The notes below the pieces were generated by a model. It was given only the letters and a program-made list of their open reading frames with translations, ran no database searches and was not told where the DNA came from. Of a stretch of DNA of 48,508 bases, positions 1 to 27,276 are shown piece by piece (the stretch's first letter is position 1; every line of letters starts with the position of its first letter). A program made the position numbers and the translations under genes. Source of the stretch: Patescibacteria group bacterium (lineage in GTDB: Bacteria > Patescibacteriota > Patescibacteriia > Magasanikbacterales > UBA922); contig DATDUP010000010.1 in assembly GCA_035290345.1 (NCBI GenBank), positions 1 through 48,508 of the forward strand, written 5' to 3'.

Positions 1-338
1 ATCGCGAAGTTGCCAATCATCGGGGCTGACCGACGCAGCTTTTCTTCCATGTCGGCCGGAATGATGTGAGCTCCGCCGTAAAGAATGGGACCCCAGATCG
101 TGGGCAGGTGCTCATAACCAAGAATCGGACCATCCTTTGCCCGCTGGCACAAGTCCAACATTTCTGATACTGTTCTCTGAAAGATGGCCGCACTTTGCCG
201 GCCGTAAGTGGCCAAGCTGCAGATCATCTTGAGAGCCGCATCCACATCACAGACAAAGATCCGCACCCGGCCATAATCAAACCGGTACAGACGACCGCCT
301 TCCTCATGGACCAATTGCACGTCTACTTCTTCCTTCAT
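1..338 (-). CDS. hypothetical protein; the 3' end runs off the window (112 codons visible, MKEEVDVQLVHEEGGRLYRFDYGRV...)
   Basis: I translated the minus strand from the ATG at 338-336 to the window edge and found no stop. A GGAGGTGAG SD lies 5 nt upstream. The ORF is GC-rich relative to the backbone. It is absent from the ORF track because it is edge-truncated. Confidence 0.55.
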   Translation of the reverse strand, partial: MKEEVDVQLVHEEGGRLYRFDYGRVRIFVCDVDAALKMICSLATYGRQSAAIFQRTVSEMLDLCQRAKDGPILGYEHLPTIWGPILYGGAHIIPADMEEKLRRSAPMIGNFA

Positions 339-10565: not shown

Positions 10566-11303
10566 TTAAATACTTGCCGCCGCTCGAATTAAGGCCAGGA
10601 ACGAATCCTGTTTAGTAGAGGCACCCCCCACTAATACACCATCACAAGTAGGGAGCGTTAGATATGATAACACATTTTCCGGAGTAACTGAACCTCCATA
10701 AAGGACCACAGGTTCAGTTCCTAAATACTGTTGGGCTTCCTTTTTAATCCAGCCTTGCACATCGTCCGCATCAGCTGGCAAGCAAGGTGTACCCGTACCA
10801 ATCGCCCAAACAGGTTCATAAGCGATTAAAGGAATCCGACCATTCAAAGTCAAACCATCCAAAGCGGTATATAATTGTTTTTTCAACCGATATTCTCGTT
10901 TTCCTTCATCTTTTTCTTCTTTGGTTTCTCCCACACACAAGACTGGGGTCAGACCGGCGTCCAGACAAGCCTCAATTTTTTTTCGTACAGCCGTATCGGA
11001 TTCGCCAAAAATGTGACGTCGTTCTGAATGACCAACCAAAGCATACTCACAACCAATATCCTTAAACATTAGAGCAGATACCGCCCCGGTATAAGCACCC
11101 TGAGGCGTCCAACTCACATTCTGGGCTCCCACCCGCCACTCAGTATTTTTTAGTATCTCCGCAGTGTCTTGAACAGACAAAAGCAGAGGAAAGACCGCGA
11201 CCGAAACCTTTTCCTCCACAGTTTCATTTTTCAAACCCGTGGCCAGAGCTACGGTCTCAGCAGCATTCAAGTACATTTTCCAATTGCCAAAAACGTATTT
11301 CAT
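10566..11303 (-). CDS. tpiA: triosephosphate isomerase
   Basis: Motifs GNWKMY, VGHSERR and AYEPVWAIGTG. Confidence 0.95.
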   Translation of the reverse strand: MKYVFGNWKMYLNAAETVALATGLKNETVEEKVSVAVFPLLLSVQDTAEILKNTEWRVGAQNVSWTPQGAYTGAVSALMFKDIGCEYALVGHSERRHIFGESDTAVRKKIEACLDAGLTPVLCVGETKEEKDEGKREYRLKKQLYTALDGLTLNGRIPLIAYEPVWAIGTGTPCLPADADDVQGWIKKEAQQYLGTEPVVLYGGSVTPENVLSYLTLPTCDGVLVGGASTKQDSFLALIRAAASI

Positions 11304-11312
11304 AAAAAAAAT

Positions 11313-12572
11313 TTAGGTGATTAATTTTTGATCTCCGACCGCGCCCACCAATGCTAGCCGCTGATTTTTTTCCTGAAAAACTTCTTGAGCAATCTCCTGG
11401 AGCTGCCGATTAGTGATCTGTTCTAATTCTTTTATCTTCTCCTCCGGTGTTTTTATCCGCACTCTATAAATATCTTGTAGACCATACCAACTGGCCTGAC
11501 TACTACTATCTTCCAAAGACAGAACCAGGTGACCTCGTAGATGTGTCTTGGCATCTTGAAGCTCTCGGGCAGTCACCCCTTTCTTTTTTAGATTCTTCAA
11601 TTCCTGCTGAATTACGGTGAGAGCCCGAGGGATATTCTTGGCTTCCAAACCCACACGAATAGCGGAATAGCCGGCATCATGAAAACTCTCCTGATCCGCG
11701 CGCACCATGTAAGCCAAACCTAAACGCTCGCGAATCTTAATGAATAGTCGTGAACTCATACTGCCGCCCAAAATAGTGTTCAATACCCCTAAAACAATAT
11801 TGCGTTCATCCGCATAGGCGAAACTAGGATAACCAACCATCAACTGCACCTGGTCAGTGCACATCCGCACGATTCGTTGGCGCTTTTCTTTCTCGGTTGG
11901 ACCTAGAACAGCGGGAGAAAACCCAACCGGGCTCTTCTTCTCTTTGGCCGGAGAAAAATATTTCTCCACTAATTTCTTTGCTTCCGCACTGATGTGTCCA
12001 GCAATGACAATGGTGAAATTGTCTGGCCGATAAAACTGCTGATAATAAGCCATAACTTGCGGCCGGGTCAGCTGACGCACAGTCTTTTCTACTCCGCCAA
12101 TATCCCAGCTCAAGGGATGAGTGGGGGCAAAAAAAAGATTTTCAAATTCGCTTTCAATCCGCAACAACGGATTGTCTTTATACATACGTAGCTCTTCTAT
12201 AATCACTGTCTTCTCCCGTTCCATTTCTGCTGGCGTGAATCGGGAGTGATAGAGCATGTCCGAGAGAATATCCAAGGCCAAGTCCAGATGTTGCTGAGCA
12301 GTTTTGATGTAATAGCCAGTATATTCCTTGCTCGTGAAAGCATTATACTCCGCGCCCAGGCGATCAATCTCTCGTGTCAAAACCAAAGTTGTGGGCCGAC
12401 GTTTTGTTCCTTTGAACATTAAGTGCTCAATAAAATGAGAGAGGCCGCTGGTCGCCTTTGTCTCATAACGTGAGCCAACTGGCGCCAAAACCAAAATCGT
12501 CACCGTCTTTGTCCCGGACATGGGGACAAGGTACAGCTTGGTTTGGTTAATCGTCTGACAAGAAAAAGCCAT
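11313..12572 (-). CDS. M16 family (insulinase/pitrilysin-like) zinc peptidase
   Basis: The inverted zinc motif HFIEHLMFKGT (HxxEH). Confidence 0.85.
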   Translation of the reverse strand: MAFSCQTINQTKLYLVPMSGTKTVTILVLAPVGSRYETKATSGLSHFIEHLMFKGTKRRPTTLVLTREIDRLGAEYNAFTSKEYTGYYIKTAQQHLDLALDILSDMLYHSRFTPAEMEREKTVIIEELRMYKDNPLLRIESEFENLFFAPTHPLSWDIGGVEKTVRQLTRPQVMAYYQQFYRPDNFTIVIAGHISAEAKKLVEKYFSPAKEKKSPVGFSPAVLGPTEKEKRQRIVRMCTDQVQLMVGYPSFAYADERNIVLGVLNTILGGSMSSRLFIKIRERLGLAYMVRADQESFHDAGYSAIRVGLEAKNIPRALTVIQQELKNLKKKGVTARELQDAKTHLRGHLVLSLEDSSSQASWYGLQDIYRVRIKTPEEKIKELEQITNRQLQEIAQEVFQEKNQRLALVGAVGDQKLIT

Positions 12573-12577
12573 AAGGA

Positions 12578-13951
12578 TTAAAAAACCAATTTAGCTGACA
12601 AATAATCCACTAATTCTTTAATCGCCACTCTTTCTTGCCCCATAGTGTCGCGATCCCGAACCGTCACCTTTTGGTCTTCTAAGCTGTCAAAATCAATGGT
12701 CAGACAAAACGGAGTGCCAATCTCATCCTGGCGGCGGTATCGTTTGCCAATGCTTCCGGTCTCATCATATTGGACCTGCCACTTAGGTCGTAACAACGAA
12801 AGAATCTCTTGTGCTAACCCGGTCAAAGGCTCTTTTTTAGATAAAGGCAAAACTGCCACCTTGATGGGGGCCAAAGCCGGATGAAGGCGTAGAATCACTT
12901 CTTTCTCATGTTTAGCATCATCTTCTCCGGATCGAGCCCCCCCTTCTTCATAGGCATCAATCAAGAAAGCCAACAAAGCTCGATCCGCCCCATCCGAAGT
13001 CTCAATAATATGCGGGACATAACGTTCATTTTTTTCCTGATCAAAATAACGCAGATCCTGACCACTGAACTGACTGTGGCGAGATAAATCCCAATCTCCC
13101 CGATCATGAATCCCGGCCAATTCTTTGAAGCCCATGCCCGGATAATTGTATTCTATATCCACCGCTTGTTTGGCATAATGGGCCAATTCATCTTTTTCGT
13201 GGTCGCGGAAACGTAAGTTTTCTTTTTTCAGACCATACTGTCGGTACCATTCCATTCTGGCTTTTTTCCAAGCCGAAAACGCTGCATCTTTTTCTTGGGG
13301 GTTAATAAAATACTGCTGTTCCATTTGTTCAAATTCCCGAGTACGGAAAATGAAGTGGCCGGGGGTAATCTCATTACGAAAAGCCTTACCAATTTGAGCA
13401 ATACCAAAGGGCAATTTTCGCCGCATGGTCTGGATGACGTTGAGAAAGTTCGTATAAATTCCCTGACAAGTCTCGGGACGGAGATAAATCGTGCTCGCCT
13501 CATCTTCTACTGCCCCCATTTGGGTTTGAAACATCAAATTAAATTTACGCACTTCTGTTAGTTGGCCCCCGCAATCAGGACAAGCCACTTGTTGTTTGCC
13601 CCAGTCACCCGGAGAAAATTTTGGTTTAATCCCCTTAGCTTCCAAAAGATGATCTGCTCGCCAACGTTTCTTGCATTGTCGACAATCCACCAATGGATCA
13701 GTAAACCCATCCACATGACCGGAAGCTTCCCAAACTTTAGGATGCATGAGAATCGAAGAATCTAAACCAACAATATCTTCCCGTTCTTGAACCATGGCTT
13801 TCCACCAAGCAGCCTTGATATTGTTTTTAAGCAAAACACCCAAAGGACCGTAGTCATAGCAAGAAGACAAGCCGCCATAAATTTCCGAAGAAGGAAAAAC
13901 AAAACCCCGACGTTTGGCCAAAGAAACAATGGGTTCTAAAGATTGAAGCAT
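12578..13951 (-). CDS. glyQS: glycine--tRNA ligase, homodimeric type
   Basis: A 457-aa class II aaRS with [21 protein letters not shown] and a C-terminal anticodon-binding domain. Confidence 0.95.
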
Positions 13952-13984
13952 ATGATTAAAGTTATGAATTGATTATAGCAAATT

Positions 13985-14105
13985 AAAAAGACCGTTAAAA
14001 CGGTCTTGGGGCCCTAGCGGGCGGTTCCACCCAAGTTGCCTAGAGGATATCTAGACCACTTTTCTGCCAGCTACAGGGAGCCAATCCCCTGGTTATCACC
14101 GGCCA
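13985..14105 (-). promoter_or_regulatory. compact T-box-type leader (tRNA-sensing riboswitch) upstream of glyQS
   Basis: The minus strand carries the T-box core GGGUGGAACCGCC. The antiterminator reads CUUGGG / bulge UGGAACC / GCCC-GCUA-GGGC / CCCAAG (14035-14005). It shares AAG with the terminator AAGACCGU-UUUA-ACGGUCUU plus a U run (14007-13985). GGC triplets lie upstream. Confidence 0.7.
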
Positions 14106-14109
14106 GAAT

Positions 14110-14139
14110 ATTATGACACATTATTATCAGTAAAGTCAA
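14110..14139 (-). promoter_or_regulatory. sigma70-like promoter for the T-box leader and glyQS
   Basis: The minus strand reads TTGACT (14139-14134), an 18-nt spacer, then CATAAT (14115-14110). Confidence 0.45.
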
Positions 14140-14162
14140 TTGACTACTGTTTAAACAATGAA

Positions 14163-14187
14163 CCCCGCACAAAACTGCCGTGCGGGG
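14163..14187 (-). terminator. hairpin downstream of ORF 14244-14789
   Basis: CCCCGCAC-loop-GUGCGGGG, then UUCAUUGUUU on the minus strand. The U tract is weak. Confidence 0.4.
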
Positions 14188-14243
14188 TAAAAGGTAGGCT
14201 ATTTGAGGAGGAAAACGACAGAGGGAAAAAGAGAAGAAGGCGC

Positions 14244-14789
14244 CTAACCACTGGCAACGTGGACCGGCAATTCGGCGCAGGAAGTAGCTGTGATGTCTGA
14301 TCGGCGGCGCAGGAAGTAACTATCACTGCCCCCCCATTCTCTTTGTTCTGGCCACCACCTCTGAAACCAGTTGCCCTTCTCATCCTGATGGATGTAAGCA
14401 AACTCCCAATCGCCATATTGCCATCTCGTCCAATCAGGAAAAGCGAAAACAACTTTCCCATTTGAGGTGACTGGGATGGGAATATCGCCTTGGTGATCCA
14501 GAAGATGTTGACAATCTTTCTGGCCAAGATCTGCACCCAGATCAGTAGCGCGGGTGCGCAGGACATTCCCGACGATATAACGTTCTCCCGGAAGGAGAAC
14601 CGGAAGGATCTCGTAGATGATTCCTCCCACCGTCATTGCCGCAGGGATACGACTGACCAGGGACCGCTGACGAAGAAAGAAGGTCAAGACCATGACAATA
14701 CTGGCGAACGCCAGGATGAAAAAACAACCCAAAACCAAAATCCAAAAAACCAACCCCCAATCAATCACTACGGCCAGTTCCTTTTCCAT
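14244..14789 (-). CDS. hypothetical membrane-anchored protein, GC-richer than its neighbours, Trp-rich C-terminal domain
   Basis: The ATG at 14789 is preceded by GGGGGGAG. An N-terminal TM region (VFWILVLGCFFILAFASIVMVLTFF) is present. The track ORF extends to 14825. Confidence 0.55.
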   Translation of the reverse strand: MEKELAVVIDWGLVFWILVLGCFFILAFASIVMVLTFFLRQRSLVSRIPAAMTVGGIIYEILPVLLPGERYIVGNVLRTRATDLGADLGQKDCQHLLDHQGDIPIPVTSNGKVVFAFPDWTRWQYGDWEFAYIHQDEKGNWFQRWWPEQREWGGSDSYFLRRRSDITATSCAELPVHVASG

Positions 14790-26587: not shown

Positions 26588-27109
26588 CTAAGCTTTGTTT
26601 TCCTTGATCGCGTTCAAGACATTGACCAAGCCACGCAAATTGCCGGCAAGGACATTGACCAAGCCAGAAACCGGCGCATTGATTGAGCCAACCAATTTGG
26701 CCAAAAGCTCTTGTTTGCTGGGTAGAAGCGCGAGTTCTTTTACTTTAGCTGCATCGATGAGTTTACCTTCTAAGATGCCGCCAAAGATAGTGACAACTTC
26801 GTGCTTCTTAGCAAAGTTAGCCACGATCTGGGCCGGGGCTACTTCATCCTCTTGACCACATACTGCGGCCACTCCGCCCGGATAGGTTTTGGTTTCCAAG
26901 TTGAAACCAATCTCGGCTAAGGCTCGTTGCAAAAGAGTCTTCTTGCTGGCAACCAAACCAATAGCTTGGGCCCGGCATTGCCGACGCAAATCTTCGGATT
27001 CTGACACTTTCAGCCCTTGAAAATTGGCAAAGACCACGGCCTTGGCCGTGCGAATACCGTCTGCCAAATTCTTGACTGCCTCCTCTTTTTGTTGTCTGGT
27101 TTTCGCCAT
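26588..27109 (-). CDS. rplJ: 50S ribosomal protein L10
   Basis: A 173-aa protein immediately upstream of rplL, with KAVVFANFQGLKVSESEDLRR. Confidence 0.9.
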   Translation of the reverse strand: MAKTRQQKEEAVKNLADGIRTAKAVVFANFQGLKVSESEDLRRQCRAQAIGLVASKKTLLQRALAEIGFNLETKTYPGGVAAVCGQEDEVAPAQIVANFAKKHEVVTIFGGILEGKLIDAAKVKELALLPSKQELLAKLVGSINAPVSGLVNVLAGNLRGLVNVLNAIKENKA

Positions 27110-27276
27110 ATAAATAAAAACTGTGGCAAAACCACAGACTATTCCGGATACGACCTTTTACCTGGCTAAAAAAGCCAGTAATTTCTCCTCGGCAGCGTAT
27201 TTAATCCCTTAAAAGGAAGCTGCTGTCTGCGGTGAATTAACGAAAGTATAATATCTCAGGCTCAAAAGTTTGTCAA
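27110..27276 (-). promoter_or_regulatory. rplJ promoter plus structured leader with a terminator-like hairpin (L10-leader-type autoregulatory candidate)
   Basis: The minus strand reads TTGACA (27276-27271), 17 nt, then TATTAT. The roughly 130-nt leader has several hairpins. The last is CUGUGG-UUUUG-CCACAG plus UUUUUAUUU (27137-27112), just before the ATG. Confidence 0.4.

Follow-up and report, generated by a model that had tools for sequence, protein, structure and literature searches.

A candidate T-box riboswitch with an ultrashort Stem I upstream of glyQS in Candidatus Magasanikbacteria

T-box riboswitches are the model for an RNA that recognizes another structured RNA. According to structural and single-molecule work, fast capture of the tRNA needs either a platform on Stem I that contacts the tRNA elbow (in transcriptional T-boxes) or Stem II with a pseudoknot (in truncated translational T-boxes). 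Can a T-box work with neither of them? This question is raised by the leader of glyQS, the gene for glycine--tRNA ligase (GlyRS), in a contig of 48,508 nucleotides (DATDUP010000010.1; hereafter, the window). The contig belongs to a 689-kb assembly (37 contigs, 44% GC) of Candidatus Magasanikbacteria, a member of the candidate phyla radiation (CPR). An earlier note, which was made from the sequence of the window alone, had proposed that the leader is a T-box that terminates transcription and whose Stem I is drastically reduced.

Here, we examined the leader together with its counterparts in related genomes. It has the sequence elements of a T-box, these elements are conserved and covary among relatives, its bulge matches the tRNA-Gly of the genome, and its computed folds are biased toward the OFF state. 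We consider it highly probable that the leader is a tRNA-Gly-dependent T-box that acts by antitermination, and that the mechanism proposed below for the family also applies to the copy in the window; binding of the tRNA, discrimination of its charge, and readthrough are what we infer from the sequences. We would class the leader as a T-box variant of new architecture, in which a discriminator and linker of the glyQS type are combined with an ultrashort Stem I that carries the codon in its terminal loop and with a terminator of minimal overlap.

Structure and conservation of the glyQS leader

On the minus strand, the terminator of the upstream open reading frame (ORF) is followed by promoter P1, the leader of 120 nt (14104-13985), a spacer of 33 nt, and the ATG of glyQS at 13951. 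Reading of this strand, together with scans for promoters and terminators, found the promoter, the Stem I hairpin, the second hairpin (Stem III), the T-box core, and the terminator at the positions that the earlier note had given for them (Table 1). P1, with its TG extension, scored 10/12 in the promoter scan, and the expected start of its transcript, at about 14104-14103, coincides with the base of Stem I.

Stem I comprises only 39 nt and begins 5 nt past the -10 box, and the elbow-binding platform, which consists of an AG bulge and a distal loop, is absent. In 13 of 15 members of the leader family described below, a promoter of the form TTGAC(A/T)-16..19-TAnnnT stops 2-10 nt short of the base of Stem I; because the promoter abuts Stem I in these members, no long Stem I is hidden further upstream. 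The linker between Stem I and Stem III is the shortest of the family, 9 nt as against about 17-22 nt in most relatives. It thus leaves no room for Stem II or a Stem IIA/B pseudoknot, and neither was found in the window. Three relatives (L010, L017, and L020) have an extra hairpin of 25-40 nt in the linker, at the place of Stem II, which could be a remnant of Stem II or a lineage-specific insertion.

The earlier note had pointed to the Gly codon GGC at two sites in Stem I. The GGC in the apical loop is conserved: when the loops were read by eye, 25 of the 26 members had GGC as the triplet and one had GGA, and thus all 26 had a Gly codon. The GGCA in the 3' strand lies in the covarying base helix and is coincidental; it was rejected as a specifier because this strand varies freely in relatives. 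The base on the 3' side of the codon, also read by eye, is A in 19 members, G in four, and U in three (a purine in 23 of 26). The window has U at this position, and GGC-U recurs in L029 and in L090, a leader from Moranbacteria. The leader in which the loop has GGA instead of GGC (L026, 1327-1443) would, judging from its codon, select tRNA-Gly(UCC) over tRNA-Gly(GCC). Between the base helix and the specifier hairpin, the family has an internal loop with a 3-nt bulge, where the 5' strand has GA and the 3' strand GGA (consensus UGA...GGA), a consensus that fits a kink-turn (K-turn). Compensatory changes are found in all five pairs of the base helix and in all five of the specifier stem.

The flanks of Stem III, AAGUG and AA (14061-14036), match the discriminator motif RRRxG-Stem III-AA of T-boxes (PMC7583486, PMC11404447), of which the RAG part stabilizes recognition of the NCCA end. 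Stem III has compensatory changes in seven of seven pairs, with 96% of the cells paired, and A2 covaries in six of six. The 10-nt core GGGUGGAACC is invariant among 15 relatives. The UGGA of the bulge is complementary to the ACCU of tRNA-Gly with U73. In the genome, tRNA-Gly(GCC) (contig C7:2565-2639) and tRNA-Gly(UCC) are adjacent on contig C7; in both genes, the acceptor stem ends with ...CCGC and is followed by U73, which fits the A of UGGA. The GCC anticodon and the discriminator base that the earlier note had expected of tRNA-Gly are therefore both present.

The GlyRS genes nearest to that of the window are from metagenome-assembled genomes of Candidatus Magasanikbacteria (62-78% identity), which bears out the earlier description of the genome as CPR-like. 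A conserved leader family was found upstream of glyQS at no fewer than 17 Magasanikbacteria loci, and seven more members came from metagenomes; five of these seven stand directly upstream of a GlyRS gene that is 47-78% identical to that of the window. The sequence GGGTGGAACC occurs upstream of glyQS in 14 Magasanikbacteria loci, all of which have the same modular leader. The metagenomes were scanned with the pattern TGGC-N6-GGAR-N30-60-GGGTGGAACC, which gave the seven real members among 80 loci listed. The rest were mostly chance matches in GC-rich coding DNA; thus, the scan is no measure of the size of the family.

For the covariation test, 15 leaders were aligned with MAFFT, and five helices were examined, namely the Stem I base, the specifier stem, Stem III, A1, and A2. 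In the raw alignment, 92.2% of the cells are paired as against 71.7% in shuffles (none of 500 reached the observed value), and 24 of the 29 pairs change on both sides. When the partners were slid by 1-3 columns as a control, pairing fell to 31-55%. In a model alignment of 21 sequences, 94.4% of the cells are paired as against 66.7% in shuffles, 26 of the 29 pairs covary, and all five helices, including A1 and A2 of the antiterminator, are backed. The earlier note had taken a lack of covariation in relatives, or a discriminator base of tRNA-Gly that is incompatible with UGGA, as evidence against its proposal; since the covariation is strong and U73 is compatible, neither objection applies.

Two covariance models were built. 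Model R1, built from the MAFFT alignment of 15 leaders, recovers members outside its training set (L013, 72 bits; L010, 66 bits; L020, 44 bits; the Moranbacteria leader L090, 31 bits). Model R2 was built from the seven metagenome relatives alone; as the window sequence was left out, it is a non-circular test of the leader. In the window, the leader is the sole match of R2, at full model length (40.4 bits, E = 6.4e-9). One leader of Chloroflexia, L054, matched R1 with 33.7 bits and was rejected as a minimal member; it is a near-canonical T-box of 214 nt (RF00230, 78 bits), of which R1 had matched the 3' part. Immediately upstream of L054 (1173-1386), the opposite strand carries a tRNA gene, and L054 is the sole non-CPR glyQS leader with a T-box match among 16 scanned.

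The search with the Rfam T-box family RF00230, which the earlier note had suggested as a check, had a mixed outcome. The model aligns over the locus (14004-14152, minus strand) with 31.4 bits and E = 9e-6 per genome, and the same 31.4 bits were obtained in a scan of ten loci; however, the score is far below the gathering cut-off of 93 bits, and detection was erratic. Three scans listed no T-box: one of the whole window with the gathering threshold applied, one of 351 nt with E <= 10, and one of the locus alone. The match at 13900-14250 of the window, listed in two of five scans, depends on the amount of other sequence submitted, and we treated its erratic appearance as a filter effect rather than as absence. 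In the RF00230 alignments of sister leaders, the discriminator half matches well and the distal part of Stem I is deleted. Such behavior warns that T-boxes below the threshold can easily escape detection in CPR genomes. Because a leader of this kind reaches 31 bits where 93 bits are required, searches of the Rfam and TBDB type under-detect the T-boxes of CPR bacteria.

Table 1. Features of the glyQS locus and of the other T-box leaders of the genome
Feature	Position	Strand	Details and basis
Promoter P1	14110..14139	minus	-35 TTGACT (14139-14134), 18-nt spacer, TG-extended -10 CATAAT (14115-14110)
Ultrashort Stem I, 39 nt	14066..14104	minus	Base helix, K-turn-like internal loop, and 5-bp specifier hairpin
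Stem I base helix GCCGG/CUGGC	14103-14099 with 14070-14066	minus	Covariation
K-turn-like internal loop UGAUAAC/UAG	14098-14092 and 14073-14071	minus	Sequence
Specifier hairpin CAGGG-GAUUGGCU-CCCUG	14091-14074	minus	Covariation
Specifier codon GGC (Gly)	14080..14082	minus	Terminal loop, followed by U14079; loop triplet kept in relatives
Linker AGAAAAGUG, 9 nt	14057..14065	minus	Last five bases AAGUG = RRRxG flank of Stem III
Stem III GUCUAGA-UAUCC-UCUAGGC	14036..14056 (helix 14056-14038)	minus	Followed by conserved AA (14037-14036); covariation
Antiterminator (T-box core) CUUGGG/UGGAACC/GCCC-GCUA-GGGC/CCCAAG	14005..14035	minus	Sequence, covariation
Helix A1 CUUGGG/CCCAAG	14035-14030 with 14010-14005	minus	Columns 225:336, C-G in 9 and U-A in 9
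7-nt bulge UGGAACC	14029-14023	minus	Canonical
Helix A2 GCCC-GCUA-GGGC	14022-14011	minus	Covariation
Intrinsic terminator AAGACCGU-UUUA-ACGGUCUU + UUU	13985..14007 (hairpin 14007-13988)	minus	Terminator scan
Candidate promoter P2, extended -10 box TGCTATAAT	13972..13980	minus	Between terminator and glyQS ATG
glyQS, dimeric-type glycine--tRNA ligase, 457 aa	12578..13951	minus	NF003211, 660 bits; Pfam tRNA-synt_2b and HGTP_anticodon
Terminator of the upstream ORF	14188-14162	minus	Terminator scan
M16-family peptidase gene	11313-12572	minus	3' of glyQS, same strand
tpiA	10566-11303	minus	3' of the M16 peptidase gene, same strand as glyQS
ileS leader T-box, 160 nt	C5:8345-8504	minus	RF00230, 40 bits
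thrS leader T-box, about 237 nt	C26:3315-3551	minus	Core UUCGGG/UGGAACC; RF00230, 15 bits

Terminator overlap and the proposed switch

The first three nucleotides of the terminator (AAG, 14007-14005) are at the same time the last three of the 3' strand of A1. In all 15 close members, a terminator hairpin of 7-8 bp (-7.5 to -13 kcal/mol; 8 bp in the window) is followed by U5-7, and exactly three nucleotides of A1 are used. When the three shared nucleotides are withheld, a residual hairpin of 4-5 bp (-2.3 to -7.9 kcal/mol in the 15 members) is left, which stands 3 nt back from the U tract; for the window, the computed energy changes from -10.2 to -4.9 kcal/mol. In computed folds of the whole leader, the terminator is favored over the full A1 by a median of 3.8 kcal/mol (3.8 kcal/mol also in the window), with a positive value for 14 of the 15 members. 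On this energy model, the OFF bias of 3.8 kcal/mol could be reversed by four base pairs with the tRNA's 3' end plus stacking. The covariation, the U73 of tRNA-Gly, and the terminator in 15 of 15 members support the transcription-terminating T-box with reduced Stem I that had been proposed from the sequence of the window.

In classical T-boxes, the overlap between terminator and antiterminator is much larger than 3 nt, and the 3' strand of A1 is fully overlapped. A terminator or sequestrator that overlaps the whole 3' strand of A1 is also found in L090 and in the distant members, and for this reason the 3-nt toggle looks like a specialization of Magasanikbacteria.

An alternative helix may accompany the OFF state, in which RAGU of the Stem III flank pairs with ACUY of the freed A1 strand. 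It has one covarying pair (A-U in seven members and G-C in seven) and three invariant ones, and the variable pair changes in step with a pair of A1 (C-G in nine and U-A in nine). As variation is confined to one of the four pairs, the sequences are relatives of one another, and the pairing was not seen in the distant metagenome members, this helix is only suggestive, and we put it forward as a hypothesis. By eye, three positions vary together (14061, 14033, and 14007 of the window; columns 102, 225, and 336 of the alignment). They are the R of RAGUG in the Stem III flank, the Y of ACUYGGG in the 5' strand of A1, and the R of CCCRAG in its 3' strand, and they read (A,U,A) in six members, (G,C,G) in seven, and (G,U,G) in one. 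The trio could reflect either a base triple of the bound leader or the alternative pairing of the OFF state.

The switch would work as follows. Transcription from P1 would at once yield the 39-nt Stem I, the terminal loop of which would show GGC to the anticodon of tRNA-Gly(GCC), and the two would pair. The 9-nt linker and Stem III would then position the UGGAACC bulge, so that UGGA could pair with the free ACCU-3' (U73) of an uncharged tRNA. This pairing would stabilize the outer three base pairs of A1 (CUU:AAG), and A1 would then withhold AAG from the 8-bp terminator; the weak 5-bp hairpin that is left, set back from the U tract, would permit readthrough into glyQS. Without uncharged tRNA, AAG would join the terminator and transcription would stop at 13985, and the freed ACUU could pair with the AAGU flank of Stem III.

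The leader resembles the glyQS-type T-boxes of Bacillota (Bacillus subtilis, Geobacillus kaustophilus, and Oceanobacillus iheyensis; RF00230) in the regulated gene, in the GGC specifier, and in UGGAACC, which reads U73. It also shares with them the absence of Stem II and the IIA/B pseudoknot, the single-stranded linker, the RRRxG/AA flanks of Stem III, and the competition of A1/A2 with an intrinsic terminator. In contrast to these T-boxes, Stem I has about 39 nt instead of about 90 nt and lacks the platform of AG bulge and distal loop as well as the S-turn; the codon sits in a terminal loop, not in an internal one, and is preceded by U instead of the A of the S-turn; the terminator and antiterminator overlap by 3 nt only; and the RF00230 score is 31 bits as against 93 bits. 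The lack of Stem II in glycine T-boxes has been ascribed to the strong GGC:GCC pairing, and those T-boxes keep the long Stem I with the platform that docks the tRNA elbow.

A truncated Stem I without the elbow-binding motif is also a feature of the ileS T-boxes of actinobacteria (Mycobacterium smegmatis, M. tuberculosis, and Nocardia farcinica), in which Sherwood et al. in 2015 reportedly placed the specifier in a short hairpin. In these T-boxes, the codon read is AUC, tRNA binding depends on Stem II and the IIA/B pseudoknot, and control is translational, by sequestering of the Shine-Dalgarno sequence (the class is summarized in PMC7583486 and PMC11297988). Unlike them, the glyQS leader lacks Stem II, the pseudoknot, and a Shine-Dalgarno sequestrator and ends in a terminator. 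The affinity of a truncated Stem I without Stem II has been described as "barely detectable", and a review from 2020 states that transcriptional T-boxes generally require a long Stem I. In the searchable literature, outside which most subscription papers lie, we found neither a paper that joins T-boxes with Patescibacteria or the CPR nor a published leader without both the platform and Stem II; the earlier note likewise was not aware of good documentation of the combination or of its phylogenetic placement.

We give an even chance to the reading that the leader is a two-contact transcriptional T-box, which would hold its tRNA by the loop-loop contact with the anticodon and by pairing with the 3' end only, without the elbow platform and Stem II. 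A longer loop-loop contact might compensate for the missing parts: a U before GGC is conserved, and UUGGC in the window could pair with GCCAA, positions 34-38 of tRNA-Gly. The 3-bp toggle may be another compensation, in that the ACUY/RAG triplets would swap among A1, the RAG flank of Stem III, and the terminator. If true, a two-contact T-box would contradict the rule that the platform or Stem II is indispensable, and, its sensing core being about 100 nt long, no natural T-box would be smaller. A natural, covarying family that has neither element and yet ends in an intrinsic terminator makes the rule testable on a very small RNA with a known tRNA partner, and it may be of use in engineering as a compact tRNA-responsive module.

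Points of doubt and other explanations

Several points weigh against a working switch in the window. Three features of the RF00230 family are missing from this copy: the platform, the purine after the codon, and a score above the gathering cut-off. The change equivalent to the U after the codon, A102U, abolishes tRNA binding in the glyQS T-box of B. subtilis. The K-turn consensus is degenerate in the window (UGAUAAC/UAG, with UAG for GGA) and gives no clean fit. With 60.6 bits, the leader has the lowest R1 score among the Magasanikbacteria members and is the most deviant copy. Within 1.5 kb of glyQS, 15 of 30 Magasanikbacteria loci have no such leader. The residual 5-bp hairpin of the ON state might still terminate in part, and if the rule on the platform or Stem II is general, the RNA of the window should bind tRNA poorly.

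The candidate promoter P2 bears on the same matter. TGnTATAAT is found at the same position in five of the 15 family members and TGGTATACT in two more, as against a rough chance expectation of about 0.1; besides the window, boxes of this type are located at L017, L019, L028, L031, L042, and L043. No -35 box was found for P2. To judge from its sequence and position, P2 is probably a second, basal promoter of glyQS that bypasses the attenuator, and such a bypass would probably reduce the importance of the switch.

The first of the other explanations draws on these points. It holds that the family is or was a T-box and that the copy in the window is a decaying relic, which no longer responds to tRNA; the terminator after P1 would be constitutive, and glyQS would be expressed from P2. 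The U after the specifier together with the effect of A102U, the UAG in place of GGA, a linker 8 nt shorter than in relatives, the lowest score among the Magasanikbacteria members, and the presence of TGCTATAAT between the terminator and the ATG are all in line with decay. However, the promoter and the terminator are intact in the window, as are all five helices, the RRRxG/AA flanks, and the invariant GGGUGGAACC, and GGC-U is a recurrent variant, as its occurrence in L029 and L090 indicates. Streptococcal glycyl T-boxes are functional without recognizable K-turns and with a linker of 5 nt, and P2-like boxes are also present in well-conserved members. We regard decay of the window copy as unlikely.

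Considerably less probable still is a translational switch, namely a T-box of the sequestrator type, or a leader with another partner, such as GlyRS binding the leader as a tRNA mimic. The known T-boxes with an ultrashort Stem I are translational, and in two distant metagenome members, L106 and L146, the A1-competing hairpin has the Shine-Dalgarno-like sequence AAGGA/AGG in its 3' arm. In the window, by contrast, a U run comes after the competing hairpin, there are 33 nt between its end and the ATG, and no Shine-Dalgarno sequence is visible in or near the hairpin, and in the close relatives the hairpin is followed by U5-7 in 15 of 15 cases; for a protein-bound leader, there is no evidence of protein binding. 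In L106 (1191-1370) and L146 (490-665) themselves, the Shine-Dalgarno-like sequence lies just before the start codon and no U run is present; here, the same minimal sensor appears to serve the control of translation.

That no tRNA is sensed at all, and that a promoter and stable hairpins, with nothing more than a terminator or insulator of the ordinary kind between transcription units, resemble a T-box core by chance, is hardly credible: the RF00230 score is far under the gathering score and the match was missed in three of five scans, but the 10-nt core never varies, covariation of the surrounding helices reaches GlyRS genes of as little as 47% identity, the element is specifically tied to glyQS with a Gly codon in the loop of every member, the UGGN bulge matches the discriminator base for three synthetase leaders of the genome, and the upstream gene has a terminator of its own.

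Other T-boxes of the genome and neighboring genes

The tRNA-Gly-dependent T-box of glyQS would not be the only T-box of this genome, as a motif scan found three T-box cores upstream of synthetase genes, namely glyQS, ileS, and thrS. In the ileS leader, the loop of a hairpin (CCCAG-AAUCAC-CUGGG) carries AUC-A; the leader also contains a Stem II region, a CCGUUA box, and GGGUGGUACC, and its bulge UGGU matches A73 of tRNA-Ile; with the AUC-A in the hairpin loop and the CCGUUA box, it resembles the actinobacterial class with ultrashort Stem I. It also has a U7 run 10 nt before the ATG. In the thrS leader, Stem I is long and carries ACC-A, and the 3' strand of A1 is fully overlapped by a long hairpin with a poor U run after it; the bulge UGGA of this leader matches U73 of tRNA-Thr. 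A sister genome contains a near-canonical T-box of 271 nt (RF00230, 76 bits). Because ordinary T-boxes are thus also present in the lineage, the glyQS leader is specifically reduced. As far as these sequences indicate, bacteria with genomes of about 0.7 Mb keep feedback from tRNA charge on at least three synthetase genes.

The glyQS gene, the M16 peptidase gene, and tpiA (10566-13951, minus strand) are separated by gaps of only 5-9 nt. As they lie on the same strand with such gaps, readthrough of the T-box may govern the three genes together. Elsewhere in the window, a ribosomal protein L10 leader was found at 27106-27250 on the minus strand (RF00557, 49 bits, above the gathering score of 44 bits).

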